From Actinomycetes bacterium (GTDB lineage Bacteria > Actinomycetota > Acidimicrobiia > Spongiisociales > UBA5794): 28,196 nt of DNA. Shown here in pieces: positions 1,795 through 27,457 of this stretch. Position numbers and translations under genes: made by a program. Below the pieces are notes generated by a model. It saw only the letters and a list, made by a program, of their open reading frames with translations, ran no database searches and was not told the origin of the DNA. Position 1 is the stretch's first letter. The number at the start of each line of letters is the position of its first letter. The stretch lies in contig JAJRYI010000104.1 of the NCBI GenBank assembly GCA_024275815.1, positions 1-28,196 of the forward strand, read 5' to 3'.

Positions 1795-2093
1795 TCGACA
1801 TCCTCCTCGTCGTTGGAGCCGCCATCTTCGGAATCGGGGTGTACGGAGCTCTCAGCCAGCAGTCCTTCGTGATGATCATGATGGGCCTCGAGCTGATGCT
1901 CAACGCCGCGCTACTCGTGGCGATCACGTTCTGGTGGGCATCGACCGGCGGGAACCCCGCAGGCCAGCTGCTGGTGATCGTGATCCTCGCGGTGATGGCC
2001 ATCGAGGCGGCCATAGGGTTCGCTCTGGTGACGGCGGTGTACCGGTCCCGAAAGGCCGACATCACCGAGAAGCTCAAGAAGCTGCGTAACTGA
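1791..2093 (+). CDS. nuoK: NuoK-like subunit (paralog)
   Basis: 100 aa, 3 TM, MGLELMLN and MAIEAAIGFAL with both conserved Glu. GGAGG upstream and ATGA overlap. Confidence 0.9.
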   Translation: MIDILLVVGAAIFGIGVYGALSQQSFVMIMMGLELMLNAALLVAITFWWASTGGNPAGQLLVIVILAVMAIEAAIGFALVTAVYRSRKADITEKLKKLRN

Positions 2094-4006: not shown

Positions 4007-4011
4007 TACGG

Positions 4012-5493: not shown

Positions 5494-5526
5494 CATGAGC
5501 CCGACCTCGACTCGAGAGACCCTCCG

Positions 5527-6954
5527 ATGACCGAAGCCATGGGTCAGGCTGCCATCGATATCCTCCCCGTCCTGATCCTGGCCGGGGGAGCCATCCTGCT
5601 GATCTTCTACGCCATGTTCGTTTCGCGGGCGTTGCAGGTGTGGTCCGCGCTCGGTGCGATGATCGTGCTCGCTGCTGCGGGTTTCGCCGCCGGCTGGTAC
5701 CTCGGGGACGCGCCGGACGTCACTTTCTTCGGGACGTTCGCAGCCGATCGGGCGTGGCTGTGGGGGACGCTCATCATCATCGTCGTTACAGCACTGACCG
5801 TCGCGCTCTCGGTCGAGTGGTTCCAGTCGGATTCTCGCCATGGCGAGTACTACGTGCTCCTCCTGCTCTCTGGACTGGGAGCCGTGCTGCTAGCAGGGGC
5901 GATCGACCTGATGGAACTGGTCGTCGCGATGCTCCTTTCCTCCGTCACCGGGTTCGCTCTGGCCGCCTACCACCGCAAGTCGCGAGCCGCCACAGAGGCA
6001 GGGATCAAGTACTACCTCATCGGTGCCCTGGCGAACGGAGCGATGGTGTACGGGGTTGCACTGTTGTTCGGTCTGGCGGGTGGAACCTCCTTCGAGGATC
6101 TTCGTACAGGTCTCGTGGATGCCGATCCGTTGGCCCTCATCGTCGGCTTCGCCATGGTCGCCATCGGTATCGCTTTCAAGTTGGGGTCCGTCCCCGCTCA
6201 TCAATGGATGCCCGATGTGGCCCAGGGGGCGCCCGCACCTGTAGCTGCCTTCTTGCTCGTTGCAGGAAAGGTCGGAGCACTGATCGTCTTGATGCGGCTC
6301 GTGATGGTTCTCCCCGAGTCGGGTGTGGGATGGCGACCGTTGATCGCGGTGATCGCTGCAGTCACGATGACCCTCGGCAACCTGGCCGCACTGTGGCAGG
6401 ACGACGTTCGGAGAATGCTCGGGTGGTCATCCGTGTCACAAACCGGATACGGCCTCCTGGCGGTCGTCGCGATCGGTCGCAGCGATATCGCCGTTTCGTC
6501 GATGCTCTTCTTCCTCGCCGCTTACGCGATGGGGAACATGGCAGCGTTCGGCGTGATCGTGAAACTGCGTGGGCTCACTTCCAGGGAGTCGTTTCGTGGC
6601 CTTGCAACACCCCATCCGTGGTTGATGGGAGCACTCGTCGTGAGCTTCCTCTCCTTCATCGGCATTCCCCCGCTCGGTGGCTTCACGGCGAAGCTCTTAC
6701 TGATGGGCGCCGTCATCGATTCTGGCTACGCCTGGCTCGCCGTACTCACCGTGATCAACTCGGCGATCTCACTGTTCTACTACGCCAGGGTGATGGGCCC
6801 TGCGTACTTCGACGACGCCGCCGAACCTCGACCGCTGATGGGCAGCTTGGCGTCGTGGGCGTTGGGCATCGCGACCGTCGCCGTCATCGCCATCGGTGTC
6901 GCAGCACAGCCCCTGGCAGCCGCGTGGCAGGCACTCGTGCTCCTCACCGGGTGA
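5527..6954 (+). CDS. nuoN: NuoN-like antiporter subunit (paralog)
   Basis: EAGIKYYLIGA, AFKLGSVPAHQWMPDVAQGAP, RMLGWSSVSQTGY, SFIGIPPLGGFTAK, NSAISLFYY. Confidence 0.9.
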   Translation: MTEAMGQAAIDILPVLILAGGAILLIFYAMFVSRALQVWSALGAMIVLAAAGFAAGWYLGDAPDVTFFGTFAADRAWLWGTLIIIVVTALTVALSVEWFQSDSRHGEYYVLLLLSGLGAVLLAGAIDLMELVVAMLLSSVTGFALAAYHRKSRAATEAGIKYYLIGALANGAMVYGVALLFGLAGGTSFEDLRTGLVDADPLALIVGFAMVAIGIAFKLGSVPAHQWMPDVAQGAPAPVAAFLLVAGKVGALIVLMRLVMVLPESGVGWRPLIAVIAAVTMTLGNLAALWQDDVRRMLGWSSVSQTGYGLLAVVAIGRSDIAVSSMLFFLAAYAMGNMAAFGVIVKLRGLTSRESFRGLATPHPWLMGALVVSFLSFIGIPPLGGFTAKLLLMGAVIDSGYAWLAVLTVINSAISLFYYARVMGPAYFDDAAEPRPLMGSLASWALGIATVAVIAIGVAAQPLAAAWQALVLLTG

Positions 6955-11339: not shown

Positions 11340-12791
11340 CTAGTTGCCCGGCAGGCCCCAGGTGTCGGTAGGTGACGTGGGACCACCGTCGGGCTCGTCA
11401 TCCGGGTGAGGCTCGTCCGCCTGTTCGGGTTCGTCGCTGGGCGGCTCGGTCGTGCCACTGGAGAAGCTGATGTCGTCTGGCAGCGGGGATGCATCGTCCA
11501 TCTGTTCGTCTTCTTCGTCCTCCGCCTCGACTGGCTCTGCAGCAACCTCCGGTTCCGCCTGCGGAGCGAGTGGGGGCTCCCAGTCGGGGGGGACGGTCGG
11601 GGCAACGATCAGGCTCTCCGGAAGGAGTGCAACCGGCACCGGGTCTGCCCGCCGTGTGGCGATTGCACCGAGGACCCAGGCGCCGGTGCCCCACACGAGA
11701 CCGATCACGTAGACGACTCCGCCAACGACCGGGATGAGCCAGATACCGAGACGCCAGATGACTGCACCAACGAGGAAGGCCCCGAAGAGTCCGCCTCGTT
11801 TGAGCAGGATCCGGTTGCCGAGCACCGTCACCGCGGGTATCGGGCCGATGATGAACAGTGCAATACCGACGAGCACCAGGAGCACCGCGAGCGGAATGCC
11901 GACGAGCGTGACGGCGAGGAGGGCGACACCCGCCGGCAACACGACGACCGTCACGAATCCGATGAGGAGTGACCGTATCGGGCGGGTCACGAGCGCAGCG
12001 GCTGCCCGCGTGCTCGAGCCCCGCAACACGGTGAGCACGACGATGCCGGCAACGAGGAAGCCGAAGAAGCCGATGACGTTGGCTAGGGCAAGGATGATCC
12101 CGTAGACGAAGTTGCTCTGGGTTGGGAGGCGGGTCGTCGTTCCACCGATGGCCGCGGTCGACGCTATCCCTGCTTCGACGGGGGAGCGGTACAGGACGTC
12201 ACCCTCGATCATCGCCGTGGGTCCAAGCTCGAGTTTCTGCGTCGCCACATCGAGATCTCCCCCGACGGTGCCATCGACGACGAGTCGCATCGTTCGTCCG
12301 CGGACGTCGCGTTCGACGACGCCCTCGATCCGCCCCGTCCCCGCGAAGATCATCGCATCCCTGCCGATGATTCCGGACGGCGTCACGACGACCGATGGGG
12401 CCGTGAGGAACACGTCGTCACCGACCTGCCCGCCGATCGTGGCGCTCACGGCGGTGCCTCGTAGTGATCCATCTATTCGACCGGTCGGTTCGACGACGAC
12501 GGATCCAGAGGAGAACACGGTCACCGTCCCCGTCACCGTCCCAGAGATCGTCAGGTCACCGGTGAAGATCACGAGGTCACCGTCGATGACACCGTCGATC
12601 TTGCCGGACATGGACGTGACGTAGACGTCCTCATCGACCGGATCGTCCTTACTGACGATGAACAGGTCGGTCGTGACGAGAGACGCGAACGTCGTGATCG
12701 ACGGGATCACGACGGCGAACACACCGATCAGCGCCAGAGCGAGATGTCTGGCTCTCGGGGATGGATTCTGATCAGAAAGGAAGTGCGTCAC
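11340..12791 (-). CDS. Bactofilin-like (polymer-forming cytoskeletal-type) beta-helix membrane protein with acidic Pro-rich tail
   Basis: N-terminal hydrophobic segment, about 8 imperfect G-x-(I/V)-x-G-D-(V/L) repeats, a multi-TM block and an acidic P/E/D-rich C-terminus. The start (GTG 12791) is uncertain and overlaps the nuoN stop. Confidence 0.6.
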   Translation of the reverse strand: MTHFLSDQNPSPRARHLALALIGVFAVVIPSITTFASLVTTDLFIVSKDDPVDEDVYVTSMSGKIDGVIDGDLVIFTGDLTISGTVTGTVTVFSSGSVVVEPTGRIDGSLRGTAVSATIGGQVGDDVFLTAPSVVVTPSGIIGRDAMIFAGTGRIEGVVERDVRGRTMRLVVDGTVGGDLDVATQKLELGPTAMIEGDVLYRSPVEAGIASTAAIGGTTTRLPTQSNFVYGIILALANVIGFFGFLVAGIVVLTVLRGSSTRAAAALVTRPIRSLLIGFVTVVVLPAGVALLAVTLVGIPLAVLLVLVGIALFIIGPIPAVTVLGNRILLKRGGLFGAFLVGAVIWRLGIWLIPVVGGVVYVIGLVWGTGAWVLGAIATRRADPVPVALLPESLIVAPTVPPDWEPPLAPQAEPEVAAEPVEAEDEEDEQMDDASPLPDDISFSSGTTEPPSDEPEQADEPHPDDEPDGGPTSPTDTWGLPGN

Positions 12792-14250
12792 GTACCACGT
12801 CTATGAGGATCCATGGCACGATACCGAAAACAACCGTGATCGTGGCGCTGATCACGACGGCGAACCTCGTCGAGAGACTCGGCTCGAGAACCTCTCCGGC
12901 ATCACCATCGCTCGCGAACACCGTCGCGACAACCTTGAGGTAGAAGGCAAGACCGATGACGGTAGTCAGTGTTCCCAGGATCACGAGCCATATGTACCCG
13001 ACACTGCCGGCAGCGATGAACGCGAGGACCTTGCCGACGAACCCGGCGAAGAAGGGCATCCCCGACATCCCGAACATCAGGATCGCCAACAGCCACCCGA
13101 GTTCGGGAGACCTGCGCACCAGGCCCTTGTAATCGGACATGGGTGCAGACGTCGACCCGGGGCCCGACACAGCCGACACGATGGCGAACGTCCCGACGAT
13201 CATGAACGCATAGGTCGAGACGTAGAACCACATACCGGGGATAGCGTCTGCCCCGGCGAGCAAGGCCGTGAGTAGGTACCCGGCCTGGGCGACACCCGAG
13301 TACGCAAGGAGTCGTCTCATGTCGGTCTGGACCAGGGCCATGGTGGTACCGATCACCATGGAGACGGCAGCGATGACGGCCACGATGGGGCCCCATGCAT
13401 CGATCTGGGAGAGCAACCCACCGATGAAGATGCGCCCGAAGGCGGCGAATCCTGCCACCTTGACACCGGCAGCCATCAACCCGACCGCTCCGCTTGGAGC
13501 ACCCTGATAGACGTCGGGAGCCCATTGGTGGAACGGTGCAGCCGAGATCTTGAAGAAGAGGCCGATCAACATGAGTGCCATACCGACCAGCAGGATGCCT
13601 GGCTCGGTGATGAGGTTCAGGGAGAAGAAGTACCTGATCGAGTTCGCCCCATAGATCGTCAGCGACCCCGTTGCTCCGAACGTCAAGGCTACGCCGTAGA
13701 GGAAGAGGGCAGAGGCGAGGCTGCCGAGCATGAAGTACTTGAGCGACGACTCTTCTGCGTTGATGTCGTCCCGTACGAACCCGGCGAGTATGTAGAAGCT
13801 GATCGAGGCGGTTTCGAGGCCCACGAAGATGACGAGGAGGTTCGGGCTCGCGACCATCATGTGGAGACCGGCGAACGCCAGGAGGGACAGCGTCACGAAC
13901 TCTGCCGAACGCTTCCCGATCTTGGTGACGAGATCCCATGATCCGAGGAACCCGGTGAATCCAACGAGGCCGAGAACGATCGCTGCGAAGGCTGAGTACC
14001 CATCCATGACGACCATCGGTGACTTCGTGATCTCGAGTCCGGGGGCAGAGAAGAACATCCCTCCACCGCCGTCGGCAACATCCATCCATTGGAGCACACC
14101 CACCGCACCAGCGAGCAGGAACGTGAAACCTGCCACCGGGCCCCACACCTTGCGGTTTCGATCCATCACGACCGCGACCATGAGCACCGTCAAGGCACCA
14201 ACGATCAACACGATCTCGAAGGCAACAGGAAGCCATGCTGCGTTCTGCAT
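12772..14250 (-). CDS. nuoN: NADH-quinone oxidoreductase subunit N
   Basis: IFVGLE, ESSLKYFMLGS, FKISAAPFHQWAPDVYQGAP, RLLAYSGVAQAGY, GMPFFAGFVGK. Last gene of the canonical operon. Confidence 0.93.
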   Translation of the reverse strand: MQNAAWLPVAFEIVLIVGALTVLMVAVVMDRNRKVWGPVAGFTFLLAGAVGVLQWMDVADGGGGMFFSAPGLEITKSPMVVMDGYSAFAAIVLGLVGFTGFLGSWDLVTKIGKRSAEFVTLSLLAFAGLHMMVASPNLLVIFVGLETASISFYILAGFVRDDINAEESSLKYFMLGSLASALFLYGVALTFGATGSLTIYGANSIRYFFSLNLITEPGILLVGMALMLIGLFFKISAAPFHQWAPDVYQGAPSGAVGLMAAGVKVAGFAAFGRIFIGGLLSQIDAWGPIVAVIAAVSMVIGTTMALVQTDMRRLLAYSGVAQAGYLLTALLAGADAIPGMWFYVSTYAFMIVGTFAIVSAVSGPGSTSAPMSDYKGLVRRSPELGWLLAILMFGMSGMPFFAGFVGKVLAFIAAGSVGYIWLVILGTLTTVIGLAFYLKVVATVFASDGDAGEVLEPSLSTRFAVVISATITVVFGIVPWILIDVVRDALPF

Positions 14251-15821
14251 CAGCCCTCACCTCCCTCGTGCTCGCCGGTATCGACAACGCCGTACTCGGG
14301 CACGATCACATCACCGGGCCGAGAGAACTCGGGAGCCTCGTACTGGGTGACCGCTTCGATCCGGTCGAGAACCAGCTCGATCGACGGTTCGATACGATCG
14401 AACACCGGCTTCGGATACACCCCGATGCCGAGGATGAGGACGATGAGCGGAACCATGATCAGGATCTCCCGAAAGTTGAGGTCGCGCAGCGCCTCGACCT
14501 TGGGGTTGACCTCACCGGTGAAGACGCGTTCGTACGCCCAGAGCAGGTAGATCGCAGCGAGGATCACCCCGGTTGCAGAGATGATCGCCAACACCGGGAG
14601 GGTGAAGTACGAACCCATGAGGATCGTGAACTCGCCGACGAAGCCCGACAGGCCGGGAAGACCGGCAGAAGCGAAGGCGGAGAAGAGGAAGATCCCTGCA
14701 AAGACGGGCATCACCTTGGCCAGGCCGCCGTAGTCCGCGATCTTCCTCGTGTGTGTCCGATCGTACACCATGCCGACGAGGAGGAACAGGGCGCCCGTCG
14801 TGAGGCCGTGGCTGATCATCTGGAACACCGAGCCCTACATCGCCTGGCTGGTGAGCGCGAAGATACCGAGGACGATGAAACCCATGTGCGACACCGACGA
14901 GTACGCGATGAGTCGCTTGAGGTCGGGCTGGACGATCGCCAACGCAGCACCGTAGATGATGCCTATGACACCGAGCAACGCGAGCCAGAACCCGAACTCG
15001 ACCGTCGCCTCGGGGAACAGGGACAGGTTGAAGCGCAACAAGCCGTAGGTGCCCATCTTGAGCAACACACCGGCAAGGATCACTGATCCAGCCGTCGGTG
15101 CCTCGGTGTGGGCATCAGGCAGCCACGTGTGGAACGGGAACAGCGGGACCTTGATGGCGAACGCTATGGCGAACCCGAAGAACAAGAACGTCTCCGTCGT
15201 ACGGGTGAACTCCACTCCGAGCATGTCGCGGAAGTCGAACGACGCGAGGGCGCCGACACTGTCTCCGGTGATGATGCCGAGGGCGATGATGGATGCGAGG
15301 AGGAACGCCGACCCGAAGGCTGTGAAGAGAACGAACTTCATCGAGGCGTACACCCTGTTCTCCGAACCCCACATTGCAATGAGCAGGTACATCGGGATGA
15401 GCACGATCTCGAAGAATGCGAAGAACACGAGCAGGTCGAGTGCGAGGAACACTCCGAGCACCCCGGTCTCGAGGATCAACATCAGCACCATGTACGTCTT
15501 GATCTTGTCCGTCACCGATCGCGACGCTGCGATCGATATCGGGAACAGCAGGGCCGTCAAGGCGACCATGAACAGCGAGATGCCGTCTACCCCCACACGC
15601 CATCCGAAACCGATGGTCGTGCTGAACGTCACGTTCTCCGCGAACTGGAAGCTGGCGTCTCCAACGGCGAAGTTCCACAGGATGTACCCGGCGACCACGA
15701 GAGGCATGAGCGACACGACGATCGCCAGTGGGTAGATCAGTTCCTGTCTCCGCTTGGGGACGAGGCCCACGATGAGCGCACCGAGCAGGGGCAGCGCGAT
15801 GAGGATGGCCAGAACGGGCAT
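14250..15821 (-). pseudogene. nuoM: NADH-quinone oxidoreductase subunit M interrupted by one in-frame TAG (codon 329, 14835-14837); apparent pseudogene, read-through gene or base error
   Basis: ORFs 14835-15821 and 14250-14828 share a frame: FALTSQAM*GSVFQMISHGLTTGALF. Joined length is 523 codons with all NuoM motifs (FFEIVLIP, IKVPLFPFHTWLP, LLKMGTYG, GFVGEF). TGATG overlaps at both ends. Confidence 0.9.
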
Positions 15822-17695
15822 CAGAAGCCTCCTCCGAACGCAACGAGCGCGACGATCAAGAGAACACCTGCAACGGCGATCCCTCCGGCGTAGCTGCGGA
15901 CCTGTCCGGACTGAAGCTGGCGCATACCCTCACCGCTGGAGCGCACCCCGTTGGCGAGCCCGTGTGTCACGCCATCGATCCCCTTCGGGTCGACGGTGTC
16001 GGAGAACCACTCGGAGATCTTCTTGCCGGGAGCGACCACGACCTTTCCATAGAAGTCGTCGACACCGAAGGCGTTGAGACCGGCCTTCCAGAAGCCGCCT
16101 TCTTCGACCGGAAGTTCCTCGCCGCGGTAACGCAGCCACGCCCAGACGATGCCGGCGATGGCGACGGCGACCGTGAACGTCGCGAGGGCGATCAGCAGAC
16201 CCAGTTCTACGGGCTCGGCGTGTTCGAGGAGCGCGAAGGACGGTTCGAGGAAGTGCTCGAAGGTGAGCCGGGCCGGGGTGTTGAACAACCCGGCTACGGT
16301 CGCGAACACAGCAAGGACCATCAACGGGATACCCATCGTGAGGGGAGACTCGTGCGGGTGGGTGTCCTCTGCCCAACGGGGTTTCCCGAGGAACGTCATC
16401 ACATAGAGCCTCGTCATGTAGAACGCGGTCAGCAAGGCTGCGAGAACACCGACGATCCACAAGATCATCCATGGCCCGCCCTTCTCGAACACTGCGGCAA
16501 GCACCTCGTCCTTGGACCAGAAACCGGAGAAGGGGAAGATCCCTGCAATGGCGAGCCACGCAACGGTCATCGTGATGAACGTGATCGGCATGACCTTGCG
16601 CAGGCCACCCATCTTCCGCATGTCCTGTTCGTTCGCCATCGCGTGGATGACCGACCCTGCACCGAGGAAAAGGAGGGCTTTGAAGAACGCATGGGTCGTG
16701 AGGTGGAACACGCCCGCCGTGTAGGCGCCTGCACCGACGGCAAGCACCATGTATCCGAGCTGGCTGATCGTCGAGTACGCGAGAACCTTCTTGATGTCCA
16801 TCTGGGTGACCGCGATCACGGCGGCCAACAGCGCTGTTGCGGCACCGACGGTAGCAACGACACCACCCGAGATCGGTGCGAGCTCGAAGAGAACCGCCGA
16901 TCGGGACATCATGAACACACCGGCGGTGACCATGGTGGCTGCGTGGATGAGGGCAGACACCGGTGTCGGGCCTTCCATGGCATCCGGCAACCAGATGTAG
17001 AGCGGAATCTGCGCCGACTTGCCGGTCGCTCCGAGGAATAGCAGAAGCGTGATCGCCGTCGCCGCTGCGGTGGTCAGCACTGCAGGGGCGGATGAGAAGA
17101 TCACGCCGAAGTCGAACGTGCCGAAGGCCGCGAAGATCATCATCAGAGCGACGAGGAACCCCCAGTCACCGATCCGGTTGACGATGAACGCCTTCTTGCC
17201 TGCTGCTGCAGCGGTCGGCTTCGTGAACCAGAACGAGATGAGGAGATACGACGAGAGGCCCACGAGCTCCCAACCGATGAACATGACCGCGTAGTTGGAG
17301 GCGAGAACGAGGATCATCATCGATGCGATGAAGAGGTTCAGGTACGCGAAGAAACGCGGGTACCGCTCATCCCCATGCATGTAACCGATCGAGTAGAGAT
17401 GGATCAGAGCGCCGACACCGGTGACGATCATCGTCAGGAGTGCCGACAGTGGATCCCAGAGGATCGCGATGTCGGCACCGACGATCGGGATCCAGGAGAA
17501 CAGGTAGATCGTCTCTGGAGATGCCGTCCCCGTGATGAAGGCGAGCGTCGGCATCACAGCAACACCCCAGCCGATACCGACGAGGGCGAACGCGATCCAA
17601 CCGGACAGAGGCTCACCGATCTTCTTACCGAAGAAGAGGTTCAGAGCAGCCCCGAGGAGGGGGAGAGCAACGAGGAGCCAGAGATATTCAGTCAT
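15821..17695 (-). CDS. nuoL: NADH-quinone oxidoreductase subunit L
   Basis: GWELVGLSSYLLI, KAFIVNRIGD, GKSAQIPLYIWLPDAMEGPTPVSALIHAATMV, THAFFKALLFL, GFWSKDE. Confidence 0.95.
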   Translation of the reverse strand: MTEYLWLLVALPLLGAALNLFFGKKIGEPLSGWIAFALVGIGWGVAVMPTLAFITGTASPETIYLFSWIPIVGADIAILWDPLSALLTMIVTGVGALIHLYSIGYMHGDERYPRFFAYLNLFIASMMILVLASNYAVMFIGWELVGLSSYLLISFWFTKPTAAAAGKKAFIVNRIGDWGFLVALMMIFAAFGTFDFGVIFSSAPAVLTTAAATAITLLLFLGATGKSAQIPLYIWLPDAMEGPTPVSALIHAATMVTAGVFMMSRSAVLFELAPISGGVVATVGAATALLAAVIAVTQMDIKKVLAYSTISQLGYMVLAVGAGAYTAGVFHLTTHAFFKALLFLGAGSVIHAMANEQDMRKMGGLRKVMPITFITMTVAWLAIAGIFPFSGFWSKDEVLAAVFEKGGPWMILWIVGVLAALLTAFYMTRLYVMTFLGKPRWAEDTHPHESPLTMGIPLMVLAVFATVAGLFNTPARLTFEHFLEPSFALLEHAEPVELGLLIALATFTVAVAIAGIVWAWLRYRGEELPVEEGGFWKAGLNAFGVDDFYGKVVVAPGKKISEWFSDTVDPKGIDGVTHGLANGVRSSGEGMRQLQSGQVRSYAGGIAVAGVLLIVALVAFGGGF

Positions 17696-17697
17696 CG

Positions 17698-18003
17698 CTA
17701 CCCCTTCATCTCCGCGAGCTCATCGACGTTGGCACTCACCCGTCGCCGGAAGATCGCGATGATGATCGCAAGCCCGACCGTGACCTCGGCGGCTGCGACG
17801 ACCATGACGAACAGGGCTGCGACCTGGCCCTCGATGAGACCGAGCTCTTTGCTGAGTGCAACAAAGGTCAGGTTCACCGAGTTGAGCATCAGCTCGATCG
17901 ACATGAACATCACGAGCGCGTTGCGTCGAATGAGCACGCCACCGACACCGATCGAAAAGAGTGCCGCGGCAAGCAGCAGGTACCAGGTGATCGTCACCGT
18001 CAC
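17698..18003 (-). CDS. nuoK: NADH-quinone oxidoreductase subunit K
   Basis: [31 protein letters not shown]. Confidence 0.93.
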
Positions 18004-18530
18004 AGCACCGCCTCCTCATCCTCGACCTCGTGTCCGAAGTACGCAAGGGCGATCGTCCCGACCGCCGCGATCGTCAGCAGCATCACCGTCGCGAGAAACA
18101 CCACGGTCCACGTCCCGAACAACTCGTCTGATACGTTCTCGATCGTTCCGTTGAGGTTCGGTGTGCCGAAGGCGTCGCTGCCGGTCACCCATGCTGCCCT
18201 CCCGGCAAGCGCGATGGATGCGAACAAACCGACCGACACGACTGCCGTCATGATCCGTTGTGCTGGAACGGCAGGTCCGTACGCGTCGGGCTTGTCGACA
18301 CCGATGAGCATGATCACGAACAGGAACAGGGTCATGACGGCACCGGCGTAGACGATCACCTGGACGATCGCGACGAAGTGTGCATCGAGGAGCACGTACA
18401 TCACCGCGATGGAGAACATCGTCGAGAGCAGACCGATCGCCGAGTAGACGGGGTTCTTCGCGGCAACGATCGCGATCGCGCCGACGAGGGCTACGGCAGC
18501 GAAGATGATGAAGACGATCGTCTCAGCCAT
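18000..18530 (-). CDS. nuoJ: NADH-quinone oxidoreductase subunit J
   Basis: Start MAETIVF at ATG 18530 with AGGAGG upstream. [26 protein letters not shown]. Confidence 0.92.
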
Positions 18531-19182
18531 CGGCCTTTGCCTCCTGGGGGTCTTCGGTTGTGTCGCTGTGAGCACTCTGGCCTGTCTCCGCAGGGAGGTT
18601 CCCGGTGCGCGCCGACGGCGTCCACGCCACGACCCCTTCATAGGCTGCCCGCCCAGCTGGTGACGTCGCTCGCATCCAGCCATCACCTGCGACGAGCTCG
18701 CCGCGGTCGATGAGGTTGGATGCAGGCTGGGGGTGTCTCGGTGTTCCGTCCGGCTCCACGAGGAGCTCATCTTTGGTGAAGATCGCCTAGTCTCGGTCCG
18801 TGACGGACATCTCGAAGAGGTGTGTCATCGTGATCGCCGTCGTCGGGCATGCTTCGACGCACATGGCGCAGAAGATGCACCGCAACATGTTGATCTCATA
18901 GACGAACCCGTACCGCTCCCCCGGACTCACCGGTGCGTCCTGCGGGTTGTCGGCACCCCGAACGTAGATGCAGTTCGCCGGGCACACTCCTGCGCACAGC
19001 TCGCATCCGATGCACTTCTCCATGCCGTCCTCGTACCGGTTCAGGACGTGCCTGCCGTGGAACCGCTGTGGCTTGACACGCTTCTCCTGGGGGTACTTGC
19101 GCGTCACACGCGGCCTGCCGACCTGGCGCATCGTGACCGCGAACCCTCTGAAGGGGCCGAGAAGATCTGCGAACCAACTCAT
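18523..19182 (-). pseudogene. nuoI: NADH-quinone oxidoreductase subunit I interrupted by one in-frame TAG (codon 132, 18787-18789) after both 4Fe-4S motifs
   Basis: ATG 19182 with AGGAGG. RFHGRH, CIGCELCAGVCP, CIFCAMCVEACP, then FEMSVTDRD*AIFTKDELL. The frame continues to TGA 18523-18525, which overlaps the nuoJ start. Confidence 0.88.
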
Positions 19183-19192
19183 AGGTGCCTCC

Positions 19193-20233
19193 TCATGACC
19201 ACGGCATCCCGAAGTCTCGAACACCTATGGCGATGGCGACGAGGATGATCCAGGCGAGAGCCACCGGGATCAGCTTCTTCCACCCGAAACTCATCAACTG
19301 GTCGTAGCGCATCCGGGGCAGCGAGGCCCGCACCCATACGAAGAAGAGGACGAAGGCCCACGTCTTCAACAGGAACCAGAAGATCGGAAGCAGGTAGGTG
19401 AGCCACGTCGGGCCGAAGACGGGACCGTTCCATCCGCCGAAGAACAAGGTCGCGGTCAGCGCCGATATGTTGAACACGGCGATGTACTCGGCAAGGAAGA
19501 AGAGCGCGAACAGGAACCCGGAGTACTCCGTGTGGTAGCCACCGACGATCTCCTGTTCGGCTTCGACGAGATCGAACGGCGGCCGGTTCGTCTCGGCGAA
19601 CCCTGCGATGAGGAAGATGACGAACGATGGAACCAGAACGATGTTCCATGCGGGAATGAACCCGAAGAAGGTTCCTCCCTGCTGCTCGACGATCGTGGCG
19701 ATCGATGTCGATCCGGCGAAGATGACGACGGGCACCAGGGCGAGACCCATCGCTGCTTCATACGAGATCATCTGTGCCGCCGACCGTACCGACCCGATCA
19801 GGGGGTACTTCGATCCTGACGCCCACCCGGCGAAGGTGATCGCGTACACCGCGATCGACGAGATCGCCAGGATGTACAGCAGGCCGATGTTGAGGTCCAT
19901 CGCCACGAGGGGGTACAGCGTGCCGTTGATCTCGATGGGGGCACCGATGGGAATGACGAGGAAGATCAGCAACGCTGTGAGCAGCGCCACGATGGGAGCG
20001 GCGATGAAGAGCGCCATCTCCGCGTTCGACGGCCGGATCGACTCCTTCATGAAGCTCTTCAGGCCGTCGGCGAGTGTCTGAAGGATCCCCCACGGCCCCG
20101 CCCGGTCCGGGCCGACCCGGTTCTGGAGATCGGAGACGAACTTCCGCTCGACCCACACGAGGAGGAGCACGGTGATGAGGAGGAACACGAACGCAACGAT
20201 GACGCGGATACCGGCTTCGATGAAGATACTCAC
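19193..20233 (-). CDS. nuoH: NADH-quinone oxidoreductase subunit H
   Basis: ERKF..DLQNRVGP, LADGLKSFMKE, AQMISYE, ETNRPPFDLVEAEQEIVGGYHTEYSG, LPRMRYDQLM. Confidence 0.95.
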   Translation of the reverse strand: MSIFIEAGIRVIVAFVFLLITVLLLVWVERKFVSDLQNRVGPDRAGPWGILQTLADGLKSFMKESIRPSNAEMALFIAAPIVALLTALLIFLVIPIGAPIEINGTLYPLVAMDLNIGLLYILAISSIAVYAITFAGWASGSKYPLIGSVRSAAQMISYEAAMGLALVPVVIFAGSTSIATIVEQQGGTFFGFIPAWNIVLVPSFVIFLIAGFAETNRPPFDLVEAEQEIVGGYHTEYSGFLFALFFLAEYIAVFNISALTATLFFGGWNGPVFGPTWLTYLLPIFWFLLKTWAFVLFFVWVRASLPRMRYDQLMSFGWKKLIPVALAWIILVAIAIGVRDFGMPWS

Positions 20234-22653
20234 GAGTCACCTCGCATCACGTCTACGGTGACGACAGATTCTGCCGCCAGTCCCTTCGTCGCTTCGAGGT
20301 TGTGTGGCACGACGATCGTTCCGCGGCTCACCTGTTCGTCGAACGCCACGATGAGCTCGTGAGTACCCGACACGAGGACGCTGTCGCCCTCGGCGATCGC
20401 CAGACGTGCCGCATCCGACGGGTGGAGCCGGACGACCGGATCTCGCACAAGGCCTGCGATCGTGTCCGCGTTGCGCACCCACACGCCGTCGTCGTAGAGC
20501 GATGCGGCGAAGTGTGCAGTGAACTCTCCTGTGACGACGGGAACCGAGACCTCGACGGGTATGTAACCGAGCGGCTGAACACCGTCGCCGTGGGGGACAA
20601 CGACCCCTTCGGGTCCGGCTTCGAACGTCAGGAAGTCCATCGTCACGCCAGCGTACGCCGGGGAGACGTCGGCGAGCTCTTTCGAGATCATCGCGAGGTT
20701 CGAGGCTCCGAGCGCAACCCCCATCCTGTTCGCCAGGTCGTCGATGACGTCGTGTGTCGGCCGCACCTGGCCGGGAGGGGCCAGTGATGGCCTGACACGC
20801 TGGACCCTGCCCTCGAGGTTCGTCACCGTTCCGTCGACCTCTCCCCAGACGGCGACGGGGAGGATCACGTCGGCGTGGATGGATGAGTCGGTGACGAATG
20901 CATCGAGTGCGACCACGAACTCTGCCGCCTCGAGTGCTTCGGCTGCAAGCCGGGGATCGGGGAAGTCGCGCACCGGGTCTGCTCCGGCGAGAACCAGCGC
21001 TGAGATGTCCTCTGCCTTCAATGCGCCGAGCACGCCCTCGGTTCCGTGCCCGACGTGTTCGGGCAGCGGCCCCCAGGCTTGCTCGAGGGCCGCAACACCG
21101 GCGTCTGATCCAGTGCTGACGCGGCCGGGGAGCAGCGTCGGAGAGAGGCCCATGTCGAGTGCACCAAAGACGTTCGACCGCTCGAGGAGGGGAAGGATCG
21201 TCGCGTCCGGGAGGTCTCTGGCGAACGCAGCAACGGCCTCCGTGAGTTTGGGGTCCTCAGCGATCGATGTACGTCCAACGAGGGCGACGACGGGTCCCGA
21301 GCCGAGTAGTTCACGAGCGGCAGCGTACTCACCGTCTCCGGCAGAGAGCTTCCTGAGCACGTCTGACCCCGTACCTGCACGGTATGTCACCGTGTGCGCA
21401 GCGACGTCGTCGAGGCCCGTACCGATCGGATGAACGACGACGAGGTGCGCACCGTTGCGGACAGCCTTGCGAACTCTGAGGTACAGCACGGGAAGGGACT
21501 CTTTGAGGTCTGGACCCCAGAGAAGGATCGTCGAGGCTGTATCGAGGTCGTTGATCGTCGCCCGGGGCGTGATCGCTGCGGCGAGGTGCGCCTCGATGCC
21601 GTCACCGAGCTGGGCGTCGATGTGGGCGGACCCGACCACCGTTCGCATGAACTTGGAGAGGACGAACGCTTCTTCGTTCGTGTTGTTCGCTCCACCGATC
21701 ATCGCGACCTCGGCGCCCTGGTAGCCGCCGAGTCTCGATGCGACGACCTCGAGTGCCCTGTTCCAGGAAGCCTCTTCGAACCGGTCACCCTTCCTGATGA
21801 GCGGAGTCGTGATCCTCGTGTCGGAGTGAACGGTGGAGAAGGAGAACCGGTCCTTGTCCGAGAGCCAGCCCTCGTTGACGGCGTCGTTCTCTACGCCGTA
21901 TACGCGCACGATCTTGCCGCGGCTCGTCTGGACGTCGACCGTCGAGTGCACCGGATCGGTGACGGACACCGATGTGGTGTGCTCGAGATCCCATGGGCGG
22001 GCCTTGAAGCGGTAGTCGACCGACGTCAGGGCGCCGACAGGACACAGTTGGACGGTGTTTCCAGAGAAGTAAGAGGAGCACGGCTCGTTTGGGAAGGTTT
22101 GGATCTGCACCGCGTTTCCGCGTTCGGTGAACGTCAGCAGGGCGTCGCCTGCTATGTCATCGGCGACCCTCACACAGCGGTCACAGAGCACACAACGCTC
22201 CCGGTCGAGCAGCACGACGCTCGAGACGGGGATCGGCTTGAGATAGGTTCTCTTCTCCTCGACGAACCGGCTCTCGCCGGCACCGAACCCGTACGCCTGA
22301 TCCTGGAGGGGGCACTCCCCGCCCTTGTCACAGACGGGACAGTCGAGGGGGTGGTTGATGAGGAGGAACTCGAGGATGCCCTCCTGTGCCTTCTTGACCA
22401 CCGCCGACTCGGTATCGACGACCATGCCGTCGGAAACCACCATGGTGCATGACGGCACGAGGGCCTTACCCCTGGGACCTTCGACCTCTACGAGGCACAT
22501 CCTGCACTTGCCTACCGACTCGAGCTTGTCGTGGTAACAGAACCTCGGGATGTACTCACCGATGCCCTCTGCTGCAGAGATGAGGTACTGGCCGGCGTCG
22601 ACGGTGTGGTCCACACCGTTGATCGTGATCGTGACCTGTGCGATGTCAGACAT
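20230..22653 (-). CDS. nuoG: NADH-quinone oxidoreductase subunit G
   Basis: Start MSDIAQ at 22653. N1b (PRFCY...GKCRMC...SC), N5 (HPLDCPVCDKGGEC), N4 (CVLCDRC...CPVGAL), molybdopterin-oxidoreductase-like C-terminal domain. Confidence 0.95.
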   Translation of the reverse strand: MSDIAQVTITINGVDHTVDAGQYLISAAEGIGEYIPRFCYHDKLESVGKCRMCLVEVEGPRGKALVPSCTMVVSDGMVVDTESAVVKKAQEGILEFLLINHPLDCPVCDKGGECPLQDQAYGFGAGESRFVEEKRTYLKPIPVSSVVLLDRERCVLCDRCVRVADDIAGDALLTFTERGNAVQIQTFPNEPCSSYFSGNTVQLCPVGALTSVDYRFKARPWDLEHTTSVSVTDPVHSTVDVQTSRGKIVRVYGVENDAVNEGWLSDKDRFSFSTVHSDTRITTPLIRKGDRFEEASWNRALEVVASRLGGYQGAEVAMIGGANNTNEEAFVLSKFMRTVVGSAHIDAQLGDGIEAHLAAAITPRATINDLDTASTILLWGPDLKESLPVLYLRVRKAVRNGAHLVVVHPIGTGLDDVAAHTVTYRAGTGSDVLRKLSAGDGEYAAARELLGSGPVVALVGRTSIAEDPKLTEAVAAFARDLPDATILPLLERSNVFGALDMGLSPTLLPGRVSTGSDAGVAALEQAWGPLPEHVGHGTEGVLGALKAEDISALVLAGADPVRDFPDPRLAAEALEAAEFVVALDAFVTDSSIHADVILPVAVWGEVDGTVTNLEGRVQRVRPSLAPPGQVRPTHDVIDDLANRMGVALGASNLAMISKELADVSPAYAGVTMDFLTFEAGPEGVVVPHGDGVQPLGYIPVEVSVPVVTGEFTAHFAASLYDDGVWVRNADTIAGLVRDPVVRLHPSDAARLAIAEGDSVLVSGTHELIVAFDEQVSRGTIVVPHNLEATKGLAAESVVTVDVMRGDS

Positions 22654-23938
22654 TGGACACCTCACTTCCACCGATCATGGCTTCGACTTCGGGCATGAAC
22701 CATCTGGTGATCGACGTGATCGGCGAGACCGCCGAAGGGCCGAGCGGGCAGATCGTGGTCATCGCCGGTGGCCAGGCAAGACCGGGTGAGATGCCGTTGG
22801 AGATCTCGAGCAGGAGGTCGATGTCCTCAGGTCGGCCCTTGCCGTCGAGGATTCTGCGCAGAACGTTCTCGAGCCAACTCGTGCCTTCCCGACACGGGGT
22901 GCACTGTCCACAGGACTCGTGGGCGAAGAACCGTACGAGACGATGCGCAGCGGCAACGACGTTGGTCGTGTCGTCCATGACGATCACGGCGCCGCTTCCC
23001 GCCATGGACCCTGCCTGGGCGATGTCGTCGATGGTGACGAGTGTCTCGAGGTGTTCTTCCGGTACGAACCATGGAGCCGAAGCACCGCCGGGGATCCATG
23101 CCTTGAGTTCACGCCCGTCTGGGATCCCGCCACCGATGTCGTAGATGAGATCCCGCCAGGTCATGCCCATGACGACCTCGTAGTTTCCGGGGCGTTCGAC
23201 GTGCCCTGAGAGGCTGAACATCCGGGTTCCTGCCGAGCGCTCCGGGCCGATGGCTGCGTACGCGATACCCGAGTTGTTGATCATCCACGGGATGTTCGAG
23301 ATGGATTCGACGTTGTTGACGATCGTCGGCTTGGCGTAGAGGCCCTCAACGGCAGGGAACGGTGGCTTGAGGCGTGGCTCCCCACGTCGACCTTCGAGGC
23401 TGTTCAGCAGCGCGGTCTCTTCGCCACAGATGTACGCGCCACCGCCGAGGTGGACGGTGATGTCGAGCGAGAAACCCGTCCCGTGGATGTTCTCCCCCAG
23501 GTAGCCGGCCTCGTAGGCCTCGTAGATCGCTCGTTGGACTCTGCGAGCAGGCTTGGGGTACTCGCCGCGGATGTAGATGAAAGCGTGGTGGACGTTGAGG
23601 GCGTAGCTCGAGATGATGACGCCTTCGATGAGCTGATGCGGGTCACGCTCGAGGAGTTGGCGGTCCTTGAACGTTCCCGGCTCCGACTCGTCCCCGTTGA
23701 CGACGAGGTACCGCGGCTCGGTAGCAGCGAGGAACCCCCACTTGACCCCCGTTGGGAATCCGGCACCTCCGCGGCCACGCATGTTCGAAGCCTTGACCTC
23801 TTCGATGATGGTCTCGGGTGTCATCTCCGACAAGGCCTTGGTGAGCGCCTTGTACCCACCGGTGTCGACGTATCTCGCAATGGTGTGGCTGTCGGCGGGG
23901 TGATCGACCATGCGCGACGTGAGGATGAGATCGGTCAT
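22646..23938 (-). CDS. nuoF: NADH-quinone oxidoreductase subunit F
   Basis: Start MTDLIL at 23938 (ATGA overlap). RGRGGAGFPTG, NGDESEPG, GAYICGEETAL, ESCGQCTPCREG...ICPLG. Confidence 0.95.
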   Translation of the reverse strand: MTDLILTSRMVDHPADSHTIARYVDTGGYKALTKALSEMTPETIIEEVKASNMRGRGGAGFPTGVKWGFLAATEPRYLVVNGDESEPGTFKDRQLLERDPHQLIEGVIISSYALNVHHAFIYIRGEYPKPARRVQRAIYEAYEAGYLGENIHGTGFSLDITVHLGGGAYICGEETALLNSLEGRRGEPRLKPPFPAVEGLYAKPTIVNNVESISNIPWMINNSGIAYAAIGPERSAGTRMFSLSGHVERPGNYEVVMGMTWRDLIYDIGGGIPDGRELKAWIPGGASAPWFVPEEHLETLVTIDDIAQAGSMAGSGAVIVMDDTTNVVAAAHRLVRFFAHESCGQCTPCREGTSWLENVLRRILDGKGRPEDIDLLLEISNGISPGLAWPPAMTTICPLGPSAVSPITSITRWFMPEVEAMIGGSEVSNV

Positions 23939-24564
23939 CGATCCTCCCCCACAGATCCGTATGGTCCGAACGCCGGGACGGGGGCGATGGCGCCCTCCGG
24001 TTCGCTCGAACCCCAGTCGAAGGACCGCTGTCCCCCGAAGAGTTGCTGCATCTCGTCCGTCAACACGACTTCGGGCTGGGAATCGGTCAGCCACTCGATC
24101 AACTGACGTGCCTTGTCTGGAGTGAGCCCCTCAACCAGTTCGTAGTTCACCTGTACTGCAGGTGCGCCTCCGCATGCACCGATGCACTCGACGTGCTCGA
24201 CGGAGAAACGGCCGTCTTCAGAAGTCTCTCCATGGTGGATCCCTGTTGCTTCCTCCACTGCCTCGAGCACCTCGTCGGCCCCCTGGAGGAAACACGAGAT
24301 CGATGTGCACACCGACACGAGGTACTTGCCGACACCGTCACGTTTGAACATCGTGTAGAACGACGCGACCGACAGGACCTGTGCCGGGGTCACACCGGTG
24401 AGTTCTGCCACCTCACGCATTGCATCGGGGGAGGCGAAGTCGTGTTCGAGGCTTGCAATGTAGAGGAGAGGCATGATCGCCGAACGCTTCTCGGGGTATG
24501 CATCGAGGATCTTGCCGGCACGCTCCTGGTTGGCGTGAGACCACTGGGAGATCACCTGGTTCAT
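23935..24564 (-). CDS. nuoE: NADH-quinone oxidoreductase subunit E
   Basis: Start MNQVIS at 24564 (ATGA overlap with nuoD). VASFYTMF, VCTSISC, VECIGACGGAP (N1a 2Fe-2S). Confidence 0.93.
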   Translation of the reverse strand: MNQVISQWSHANQERAGKILDAYPEKRSAIMPLLYIASLEHDFASPDAMREVAELTGVTPAQVLSVASFYTMFKRDGVGKYLVSVCTSISCFLQGADEVLEAVEEATGIHHGETSEDGRFSVEHVECIGACGGAPAVQVNYELVEGLTPDKARQLIEWLTDSQPEVVLTDEMQQLFGGQRSFDWGSSEPEGAIAPVPAFGPYGSVGEDR

Positions 24565-25979
24565 CGGTCGACATCTCCCAGGACGGGGTCGGTCGAGGCG
24601 AGTGCTGCGATGAGATCCGCGATGAGGGAGTCGGACATCATTGCAGGCAACGCCTGAACGGCAGCGAACGACGGGGCGCGCCAGTGCATCCGCCACGGCC
24701 GTGTCCCACCCTTGGACACGAGGTGGCAGCCGATCTCGCCTCTCGGCCCCTCGACAGATTGATACGCAGTGCCTGGAGGGACCTCGATGCCGGAGGTGAA
24801 CAGCTTGAAGTGGTGGATCAGCGCTTCCATGGACTCGTCGATGCGCTTGCGTGGCGGCGGCGTGACCTTCGGGTCGGTGGTCCGGTAGTCGCCTGTGGGC
24901 ATCGTGTCGAGGACCTGTTCGATGATCTTGAGAGACTCGCGCAACTCGGCGACGCGCACGATGTAGCGATCGAAGACGTCTCCATGCTGGCCGGTCGGCA
25001 CGTCGAACTCGTACTTGTCGATCCCGGAGTACGGCATGGCCTTGCGGAGGTCCCACTCGATGCCCGATGCCCTTGCGATCGGTCCGGTGATCCCGAACTG
25101 CTTGCACTCTTCGGGTGTGAGCACACCAACACCGAGCGTCCGGTCGAGGAAGATCGGGTTCTCGTTGAGGAGTTCCTCGTACTCGTCGACCCCTGCACTG
25201 ACCACGCCCATGAGACTCACGACGTCGTCCTGCCATCCATCGGGGAGGTCGGCTGCCACACCACCGGGTCGGATGTAGTTGTGGTTCATCCGCAGACCGG
25301 TGACCTTCTCGAAGAAGTCGAGAACGACCTCACGCTCTCGCCAGCCGTAGATCATCATCGAGAGGGCCCCGATGTCCATGCCCATCGTTGCGGTGAACAA
25401 CAGGTGGCTCGCGACGCGGTTGAGTTCCGTCATGAGGATGCGGATCGCATCGGCACGCTCGGGGAGATCGATGCCGAGCAGCTGTTCGACGGTGAGCGAG
25501 AAAGCCAGCTCGTTGAAGAACGGCGACAGATAATCCATCCGGGTGACGTTCGTCGATCCCTGCGTGTAGGTGAGGGTCTCGGCGGTCTTCTCCATACCCG
25601 TGTGCAGATAGCCGATGATCGGCTTCACTCTGCGAACGGTCTCTCCCTCGAGCTCGATCTGAAGACGCAACACGCCGTGGGTGGAGGGGTGCTGCGGGCC
25701 CATGTTGATGATCTGGCGTTCCTCGTCGACGATGCGCGGTTGTTCGAGGAAGTCGTCGTCGACGGCGATACCCCGCTGGATCGCCAGTGCGGGGTCCTCA
25801 TCGCGCGGCAACATCTCTTGTGCGCCCTCGTTCGTCGCTGCTGCAAACGGCATGCGTTCTTCGGTACCTGAGACCCATATCTCATGGCGCCTGCGGCGTT
25901 CGTCGGCTACACCGAGCGTTTCAGGTGTCTGGTCATCCACGGTTTCCGTTGCCTCTGTGGTGTCGGGAGTTTCGGTCAT
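24561..25979 (-). CDS. nuoD: NADH-quinone oxidoreductase subunit D
   Basis: NMGPQHPSTHGVLRL, IGYLHTGMEK, RMDY, GLRMNHNYIRPGG, VEGPRGE, LGDVDR. Confidence 0.96.
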   Translation of the reverse strand: MTETPDTTEATETVDDQTPETLGVADERRRRHEIWVSGTEERMPFAAATNEGAQEMLPRDEDPALAIQRGIAVDDDFLEQPRIVDEERQIINMGPQHPSTHGVLRLQIELEGETVRRVKPIIGYLHTGMEKTAETLTYTQGSTNVTRMDYLSPFFNELAFSLTVEQLLGIDLPERADAIRILMTELNRVASHLLFTATMGMDIGALSMMIYGWREREVVLDFFEKVTGLRMNHNYIRPGGVAADLPDGWQDDVVSLMGVVSAGVDEYEELLNENPIFLDRTLGVGVLTPEECKQFGITGPIARASGIEWDLRKAMPYSGIDKYEFDVPTGQHGDVFDRYIVRVAELRESLKIIEQVLDTMPTGDYRTTDPKVTPPPRKRIDESMEALIHHFKLFTSGIEVPPGTAYQSVEGPRGEIGCHLVSKGGTRPWRMHWRAPSFAAVQALPAMMSDSLIADLIAALASTDPVLGDVDR

Positions 25980-26548
25980 ACGTCGAGACTCCCTGCCTTG
26001 AACTCCACGGGTACCGCACCGACGTCGTAATCCTTGCGAAGAGGATGCCCCTGCCAGTCATCGGGCATGAGGATCCTCGTCAGGTCCGGGTGGCCGGAGA
26101 ACTCGACTCCGAGAAGGTCGTACGCCTCGCGCTCGTAGAAGTTGGCACCGGCGAAAACGTCGGTGAGGGTCGGCACCGATGGGTCGTCGTACGGGACCCT
26201 CGTCGAGATGATGATCCTCTCGGCGTCACCGGTCGACAGGAGGTTGAGCGCCACCTCGAACCGCGGGGCCTCGGAGAAGTGATCGATGGCGGTGAGGTCG
26301 ATGAACGTGTCGAACCCTGCATCCTTCGCTTCGGCCGCGAACGCGACCCAGTCCGCGACCGGAACACTGATCTTGTGATAGACCGTCTCGCTGGACGCGT
26401 ACTTCGCTGTCGTGAAGGGCGCGTCTGGGAAAGACTCGATGAGGGATGCAACGATCGGGACCTCGGGAAGGTCACGAACGGGAGACGCGGCCTCCGCTTC
26501 CTCGGCATGGTCTTGCACTTCGTCGATCTGTGTGCGGTCGTCTGCCAT
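25976..26548 (-). CDS. nuoC: NADH-quinone oxidoreductase subunit C
   Basis: Start MADDRTQ at 26548. DLTAIDH, ANFYEREAYDLLG..F.GHPDLTRILMPDDWQGHPLRKDY. Confidence 0.93.
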   Translation of the reverse strand: MADDRTQIDEVQDHAEEAEAASPVRDLPEVPIVASLIESFPDAPFTTAKYASSETVYHKISVPVADWVAFAAEAKDAGFDTFIDLTAIDHFSEAPRFEVALNLLSTGDAERIIISTRVPYDDPSVPTLTDVFAGANFYEREAYDLLGVEFSGHPDLTRILMPDDWQGHPLRKDYDVGAVPVEFKAGSLDV

Positions 26549-26549
26549 C

Positions 26550-27035
26550 TCAGAGCACCCCCGTGGAGCGCTGGATCTCACCGGACATGATCTTTTCGTG
26601 CAACGTCAGGATCCCGTGCATGAGCGACTGTGGCCCCGGAGGACATCCGGGGACGTAGATGTCTACGGGTACCACTTCATCGACACCCTGGACGATGGCG
26701 TAGTTGTTGAACATCCCTCCCGATGATGCACACGCACCCATCGAGATGACCCACTTCGGCTCGGCCATCTGGTCGTACACCTGGCGTAGCACCGGAGCCA
26801 TCTTCTGGGACACCCTCCCGGCGACGATCATCAAGTCTGCCTGGCGGGGAGAAGCGCGGAACACCTCCATGCCGAACCGTGCAAGATCGTTGTGGGCGGC
26901 ACCGGTACCCATCATCTCGATGGCGCAACACGCCAGTCCGAACGTTGCCGGCCACATCGATTGGGTTCTCGCCCAGTTGACACCCTTCTCGAGCGTGGAC
27001 ACGAGAAAGCCCGGTTCGCTGGACACACCTGCCAT
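26550..27035 (-). CDS. nuoB: NADH-quinone oxidoreductase subunit B
   Basis: [38 protein letters not shown] (N2 ligands). Confidence 0.96.
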
Positions 27036-27457
27036 CAGGCAGCCTCATCCATCTCGGCTCGAGGAGCCACGACCTTGCGGTAGCGCGCACGGCTTGCAAC
27101 GTTCCAATCGAGAGCACCGCGCTTCCAGACGTACGCGAGCGTCTCGATGAGCATCAACATGAACGCGACGATCGCGGCGATGCCCGCCCATCCGAACTGA
27201 TCCATCCTCACTGCCCATAGAAACAGGAAGATGATCTCGACGTCGAAGATCACGAACAGCATCGCAACGAGGTAGAACTTGACGGGGAACCGCTGGACCG
27301 GATCCTGGAGCGGGACGATGCCACACTCGTACGGTGCCAGCTTCTCGGGGGTGGGGTTCGAGGGAGCGAGCATCCCAGACATCACCAACGACATGCCTGC
27401 AAAGGCGATGCCGAGGATGGTCATCAGAGCGATCGGAAGATAGTCAGCCAGCTCCAT
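27035..27457 (-). CDS. nuoA: NADH-quinone oxidoreductase subunit A
   Basis: [30 protein letters not shown]. Confidence 0.95.

Follow-up and report, generated by a model that had tools for sequence, protein, structure and literature searches.

Amber suppression and TAG reassignment, through supD-type tRNAs, pyrrolysine or NCBI code 15, give rise to in-frame TAG codons in conserved genes whose frames remain open, and the nuo operon described here is alike in this respect. It differs in that several residues are aligned with the in-frame TAGs, many genes still end in TAG, the RF1 gene is undamaged and in-frame TGA and TAA also occur; in addition, neither tRNA-CUA nor Pyl genes were found in an assembly that is 79.6% complete. 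Inflated counts of pseudogenes with internal stops are, on the other hand, a known sign of low-coverage assembly error (Cooley and Wright 2024, PMC11017572). The present case resembles those spurious pseudogenes in its excess of stops relative to a near relative, in the involvement of unrelated and essential genes, and in a fragmented, probably thinly covered assembly. It departs from them in that most of the changes are of a single trinucleotide type, TCG to TAG, which is absent from that paper, and in that error is here a probable rather than a proven cause.

Artefactual G-to-T changes arising from oxidised template have also been documented (Costello et al. 2013, PMC3616734). This 8-oxoguanine artefact has the context CCG to CAG and a low allele fraction, and its defining test is a read-orientation bias (PMC3616734). 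Transversions from G:C to T:A likewise dominate among the stops reported here (14 of 16), but their context is TCG to TAG and they stand in the consensus. Because this context differs from the classical one, the technical cause proposed below is not pinned to the 8-oxoguanine artefact.

The two in-frame TAG codons of the nuo operon

The window, which is the whole stretch of DNA that was analysed (28,196 nucleotides), belongs to a metagenome-assembled genome with a GC content of 63% (G000), fragmented into 502 contigs (N50 5.2 kb). The features concerned all lie on the minus strand:

12772..27457, minus strand: canonical nuoA-N operon, 14 genes, no further interruption found
14250..15821, minus strand: nuoM, complete frame, internal TAG and genuine TGA stop included
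14835..14837, minus strand: in-frame TAG of nuoM, codon 329 of 523, between ...TSQAM and GSVFQMISHG...; next base G
17698..17700, minus strand: genuine TAG terminator of nuoK, two bases 5' of the nuoL ATG
18000-18530, minus strand: nuoJ
18523..19182, minus strand: nuoI, complete frame, internal TAG included; 219 codons, the same number as in the relative
18523-18525, minus strand: real TGA stop of nuoI, overlapping the nuoJ start
18787..18789, minus strand: in-frame TAG of nuoI, codon 132 of 219, between ...VTDRD and AIFTKDELL...; next base G

Both in-frame TAGs reported in the preliminary description are present in the contig, each followed by G and each in a frame that stays open to a normal TGA, and TAG is also seen as the terminator of the genes at 6989, 11239 and 11340, as had been stated. 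The further statement that all 14 nuo genes stop at TGA fails at nuoK, which terminates with TAG; the real stops of the operon are therefore not all TGA. A product identical to that of nuoK (101 aa) is called in 13 other public contigs, and the exact match comes only from a sister species whose DNA is about 90% identical.

The proposal that both sites are compatible with Gln holds for nuoM and breaks down at nuoI. More specifically, NuoM is 93-96% identical to its counterpart in the closest relative both before and after the internal TAG. The site is CAG (Gln) in 8 of 11 relatives, and one C-to-T substitution in the coding strand turns this codon into TAG. At the nuoI site, 19 relatives carry Asp (17, as GAC or GAT), Glu (one, the closest relative, as GAG) or Lys (one), and none carries Gln; here the TAG amounts to a G-to-T change in a C-GAG context, that is, CGA to CTA. 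A stop occurs at the nuoM site in none of the 11 relatives and at the nuoI site in none of the 19. Both genes are open in every relative searched (approximately 20) and in 10 public contigs of the sister species, which have GAG at the nuoI site wherever it is covered and CAG at the nuoM site in the four that reach it.

That both lesions are TAG had been considered notable in itself. Given the codon usage of this genome, a random single-base nonsense change produces TAG in 57-60% of cases, and the probability that both would do so by chance is approximately 0.33-0.36.

In-frame stops across the genome

The reference for a reciprocal genome-wide comparison was the closest relative (G006), a member of the same genus with about 85% nucleotide identity, of which about 2.0 Mb of sequence was used. 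Plain tblastn screens for stops returned mostly non-coding frames and in-frame stretches 5' of starts, and were replaced by a strict filter on flank identity, coding score and the excess of third-position mismatches. An intrinsic scan for stops flanked by coding potential, in which TAG was enriched (11 of 15 at the strictest threshold), cannot tell interrupted genes from adjacent genes in the same frame and was set aside.

Under the strict filter, G000 contains 16 in-frame stops with conserved coding sequence on either side in approximately 394,000 codons aligned with G006: 13 TAG, 2 TGA and 1 TAA. The reverse direction gave a single doubtful in-frame stop in G006 (approximately 399,000 codons). 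The codons of G006 at the 16 sites are TCG (five), GAG (four) and one each of TCT, TCA, TAC, CAG, GAA, GGT and GGG, and the residues aligned with the 13 TAGs are Ser (seven), Glu (four), Tyr (one) and Gln (one). This census, which the preliminary description had called for, does not bear out recoding: all three stop codons are involved, and four residues are found at TAG alone.

The interrupted genes include those for glutamyl-tRNA synthetase (gltX), the SRP receptor FtsY, FtsW, a carbamoyltransferase and a P-type ATPase. All of the stops in essential genes are TAG, that in ftsW among them, and second copies of gltX and ftsY are absent from the assembly. Contig C299 carries two such stops, one of which (at 1007) passed the strict filter; stop pairs thus occur outside the nuo operon. 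The stops do not cluster at contig ends, with a mean relative distance to the nearest end of 0.51.

Substitution errors and recent mutation

Twelve of the 16 stops, including the nuoI lesion, match TCG to TAG or CGA to CTA exactly, while 14 fit the broader change from G:C to T:A (P ~2e-6 under the lineage's own four-fold-site spectrum). The share of TAG among these 14 stops (11) is in slight excess of the 51% predicted from codon usage (P ~0.04). The lesion in nuoM, an isolated C-to-T transition, falls outside the dominant class. In conserved contexts the TCG-to-TAG class comprises 8 stops and 7 missense changes (of the types Arg to Leu, Phe to Leu and Asp to Tyr) in G000, and none in the reverse direction. 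Over all contexts it comprises 34 nonsynonymous changes against 4 in the reverse direction and 488 synonymous changes against 403, and in the assembly it appears to affect about one such site in 2,000. When changes were polarised three ways with G007 as outgroup (51,188 codons), an approach underpowered for an effect of this size, G000 had no overall C-to-A excess, and the two-way asymmetry between directions, when trinucleotide context is ignored, is suggestive only.

Both TAGs are probably part of genome-wide substitution noise in a draft assembly, and would then be neither a recoding switch nor the mark of a decaying complex I. As expected of error, the stops are confined to this assembly, blind to selection and narrow in class (16 stops against 1; 12 of 16 from TCG to TAG). 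Some 25-30 stop-creating single-base substitutions, together with a similar number of missense changes, would be present across the genome and private to this assembly, the dominant change being sequence-specific, TCG to TAG (CGA to CTA when read on the opposite strand). These changes appear to land regardless of gene function or selection, and because they are blind to both, we infer that they did not arise by normal evolution and are most likely errors from base calling, template damage or the consensus step that became fixed in an assembly whose thin coverage is judged from its fragmentation only. Substitution error, the last of the options raised in the preliminary description, is thus the one that the sequence evidence appears to favour. 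In the organism itself nuoM and nuoI would be intact and NDH-1 functional.

No public run contained more than 13% of the words sampled from the stretch, and four public runs assembled there produced only short contigs, from relatives 90-95% alike, which left both sites uninformed. Four exact-pattern scans around the two sites, made for same-species DNA in metagenome and genome collections, returned no match, nor did exact look-ups of the NuoH and NuoJ of the window.

Alternatively, the stops may be real and very recent mutations in the sampled population, produced by a context-specific G:C-to-T:A mutator or by in-vivo damage and sampled ahead of their removal by selection, such that nuoM and nuoI would be null in the cells that were sequenced. 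The strong bias to one class is mutator-like, the pN/pS values given below show that the stops are recent, and two further nuo-like clusters (window 251-6954 and contig C263) mean that loss of one complex could be tolerated. This account is nonetheless unlikely, as the same lesions are found in the single-copy essential genes gltX and ftsY, and at conserved sites the class yields nonsense about as often as missense (8 against 7), and so shows no sign of selection. Moreover, a consensus seldom fixes many rare alleles unless coverage is very low, in which case errors pass too. A technical cause is inferred in preference to very recent mutation.

Loss of MutY was considered as a source of such mutations and is unsupported because a mutY-like gene is present in the assembly, merely split over two contig ends.

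Gene decay, TAG decoding and consequences

Early pseudogenisation had also been suggested, with selection on either side of each stop as its test. The pN/pS of nuoM is 0.07 upstream of the stop and 0.11 downstream, and that of the nuoI tail (0.34) is close to the 0.18-0.24 of intact relatives, so that neither gene shows relaxation downstream. Frameshift-like breaks are not in excess in G000 (7, against 9 in the control). It is true that the operon holds two lesions within 15 kb where the genome-wide rate predicts about 0.2, and that paralogous membrane-arm clusters are present which might make the loss of NDH-1 tolerable. Ordinary pseudogenisation is nevertheless very improbable: lesions also occur outside complex I, including in single-copy gltX and ftsY, and come without indels; the parts downstream of the stops remain under purifying selection; relatives with the same paralogous clusters all keep nuoM and nuoI intact; and a lesion pair is also found on contig C299.

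The phylogenetic and genomic record of TAG itself bears on the idea that this codon is partly sense, whether through an amber suppressor tRNA, pyrrolysine or context-dependent read-through, the efficiency of suppression then tuning the output of complex I. TAG terminates 228 of 917 orthologous genes in G000 (25%) and 222 in the relative, 184 of them shared at the same position. The RF1 gene, prfA (C106:3997-5067), is intact, scoring 485.7 bits against a family cut-off of 423.25 and containing no internal stops. Among 19 tRNA genes detected by ARAGORN in the 79.6%-complete assembly none is a tRNA-CUA, and the best scores for PylS (26 bits against a cut-off of 178) and PylD (18 bits against 150) in the same assembly are below threshold. 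With the assembly only about 80% complete and 19 tRNA genes recovered, a tRNA-CUA could have been missed; 13 of the 16 in-frame stops are TAG, as are all those in essential genes, and the slight TAG excess within the G:C-to-T:A class points the same way. Even so, there is very little to commend a sense reading of TAG, since four different residues stand at the TAG sites, in-frame TGA and TAA stops of the same mutational type occur, and a quarter of genes, nuoK among them, end in TAG at the same positions as in the relative, in the presence of an intact RF1. In addition, PylS and PylD were not found, no relative has TAG at either site, and suppression leaves the missense changes of the same class unexplained. 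The earlier suggestion that complex I is gated by suppression or read-through is thus unsupported, given the state of RF1 and the spread of the stops across the genome; the searches for tRNA-CUA and Pyl genes found none in the 79.6%-complete assembly.

Least probable of all is that the TCG-to-TAG changes are real and that an in-vivo context-specific process writes ambers which a suppressor tRNA, missed in the 80%-complete assembly, reads, with complex I and essential genes expressed through suppression; candidate processes would be damage to or modification of guanine in CGA, or a repair defect.

The amber pair in this textbook operon calls for caution, as it mimics recoding, whereas a genome-wide control reveals lesions of the same kind in gltX and ftsY and in a dozen other genes with no relation to it. 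At 63% GC, TAG is the likeliest outcome of any random nonsense change. If the alleles are true, they would represent an unusual case of mutation-driven amber accumulation. If the sequence is left uncorrected, annotation would label about 1% of genes as pseudogenes, and metabolic reconstructions of the organism would wrongly omit NDH-1.

Two in-frame stops in the nuoA-N operon

The window is the longest contig (C450) of the metagenome-assembled genome G000, an assembly of 2.10 Mb in 502 contigs (N50 5.2 kb, 63% GC, 79.6% complete). Its canonical complex I operon includes the following features.

27457-12772, minus strand: canonical nuoA-N operon
14835-14837, minus strand: in-frame TAG at codon 329 of nuoM, otherwise open for 523 codons
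18787-18789, minus strand: in-frame TAG at codon 132 of nuoI, otherwise open for 219 codons
17698-17700, minus strand: TAG terminator of nuoK, with the nuoL start two bases on (junction 17693-17700)

The two in-frame TAGs reported in the preliminary description are borne out, with G as the next base at both. Its statement that all 14 nuo genes stop at TGA was mistaken; because nuoK ends in TAG, the operon itself employs this codon as a real terminator. The nuoJ reading frame listed at 18000-18770 (minus strand, 256 codons) is over-extended, and by comparison with relatives comprises 176 codons (18000-18530, minus strand) with an 8-base overlap with the end of nuoI.

No stop occurs at either site in the relatives compared (11 for nuoM, 19 for nuoI). 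The proposal that both sites are compatible with Gln holds for nuoM, where 8 of the 11 relatives have CAG, but not for nuoI, where none of the 19 has Gln (Asp in 17, Lys in one, and Glu, encoded by GAG, in the closest relative). Among ten public contigs of a sister species, the nuoI site is GAG wherever covered and the nuoM site is CAG in all four contigs that reach it. Nor does the fact that both lesions are TAG carry the meaning once given to it. With G000 codon usage, TAG is the outcome of 57% of random single-base stop-creating changes under a uniform model, and of 60% when the four-fold-site substitution spectrum of the lineage is applied, because the codons one step away from TAG (GAG, CAG, TCG, AAG, TAC and TGG) are the ones that GC-rich genomes commonly use; the probability that both of two lesions are TAG is therefore ~0.33-0.36.

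Genome-wide stops and their substitution class

As a control, the closest relative, G006, a member of the same genus (~85% nucleotide identity; NuoM and NuoI proteins 94-96% identical), was compared with G000 by tblastn in both directions, using ~2.0 Mb of G006 sequence. Stops were retained when they lay inside a high-identity alignment whose mismatches fell mainly at third codon positions, when the 30 residues flanking the stop on each side were at least 75% identical, and when both flanks scored as coding. Sixteen in-frame stops in G000 passed all filters within ~394,000 aligned codons (13 TAG, 2 TGA and 1 TAA), versus one, doubtful, in ~399,000 aligned codons of G006; extrapolation to the whole genome gives ~25-30 interrupted genes. 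The sites outside the window lie at C299:1007, C194:7013, C324:2884 and 11 more positions in G000.

Fourteen of the 16 stops fit G:C-to-T:A transversions, a type expected to make up 29% of nonsense changes under the lineage's natural spectrum (P ~2e-6). More specifically, 12 share one and the same trinucleotide substitution, TCG to TAG (which reads CGA to CTA on the opposite strand). The nuoI lesion (C-GAG to C-TAG) falls within this class, and the sole transition among the 16 is that in nuoM (CAG to TAG). The same class produced missense changes at highly conserved positions of G000, namely Arg to Leu (three), Phe to Leu (three) and Asp to Tyr (one), at C144:7709, C269:1145, C493:313, C500:1378, C105:481, C248:1101 and C156:4318. 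Nonsynonymous changes of the class in conserved context number 8 stops and 7 missense from G006 to G000 and none in reverse; in all contexts the counts are 34 against 4 for nonsynonymous and 488 against 403 for synonymous changes. The ratio of stops to missense changes is approximately that predicted from target sites, and the substitution process therefore appears to be blind to selection.

The aligned coding sequence also shows strong asymmetries of direction that have no connection with the stops. TTG in G006 faces TCG in G000 3704 times, against 2541 in reverse (z ~15), and such asymmetries suggest a higher CpG and GC content at the variable sites of G000.

The simplest account of these patterns is that the stops are selection-blind, sequence-specific substitution noise private to the G000 draft assembly. 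The counts correspond to one TCG-to-TAG change per ~2,000 TCG sites (~5e-5 per base), a rate within the range possible for a short-read bin of thin coverage, and an excess of internal stops is known to mark assemblies of this kind (PMC11017572). G-to-T artefacts from template damage are also documented; however, their published context differs from the TCG-to-TAG change of G000 (PMC3616734). Alternatively, the same class could record a real, very recent mutational burst. No run containing the window was found among indexed public sequencing runs (the four examined represent relatives), nor was same-species DNA found in public collections, and a burst therefore keeps some small probability. A MutY-deficient mutator is not indicated as its cause, because a mutY-like gene is present in G000, divided between two contig ends (C179:6-179 and C103:8-367) with the middle unassembled; the gene is intact in relatives (~190-200 bits, under the strict mutY cut-off).

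Recoding, decay and the genes affected

Amber suppression, suggested earlier as a switch gating complex I, is very improbable. The predominance of TAG that it anticipates was found (13 of 16), but a consistent aligned residue was not; G006 has Ser at seven of the TAG sites, Glu at four, and Tyr and Gln at one each, and these four residues fit no single decoding rule for TAG. RF1 (prfA) is present and uninterrupted, scoring over its family cut-off, and of 917 orthologous genes, TAG ends 228 in G000 and 222 in G006, with 184 at a shared position. No CUA-anticodon tRNA was detected by ARAGORN among the 19 tRNA genes of G000, and nothing above noise matched PylS or PylD, both weak evidence at 80% completeness.

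Early pseudogenisation, also proposed earlier, has little support. Frameshift-like breaks show no excess (7 in G000 vs 9 in G006, mostly upstream of start codons), and neither stop is followed by relaxation. Between G000 and G006, pN/pS on the upstream side is 0.07 for nuoM and 0 for nuoI; on the downstream side it is 0.11 and 0.34, respectively. Among intact relatives the NuoI tail has values of 0.18-0.24, and the nuoI figure thus gives no sign of relaxation. A second membrane-arm cluster (nuoH/J/K/L/M/N-like; Pfam NADHdh, Oxidored_q3, Oxidored_q2 and three Proton_antipo_M) lies at 251-6954 of the window on the plus strand, truncated by the contig start, and a third, NuoL/M/N-like, lies on contig C263. 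Relatives have the same paralogous clusters and an intact canonical operon.

Besides NuoM and NuoI, the interrupted genes encode glutamyl-tRNA synthetase, the SRP receptor FtsY, FtsW, a carbamoyltransferase, a P-type ATPase, an acyl-CoA dehydrogenase (TAA), two aminotransferases (TGA), an acyl-CoA synthetase, a ClC channel, a VanW/PASTA protein, a PnrA-like binding protein and two proteins without a Pfam match. Among them, gltX, ftsY and ftsW carry in-frame TAG, and the G000 assembly holds no second copy of gltX or ftsY. Because the genes hit are mutually unrelated and include these single-copy genes, the lesions are not a property of complex I.
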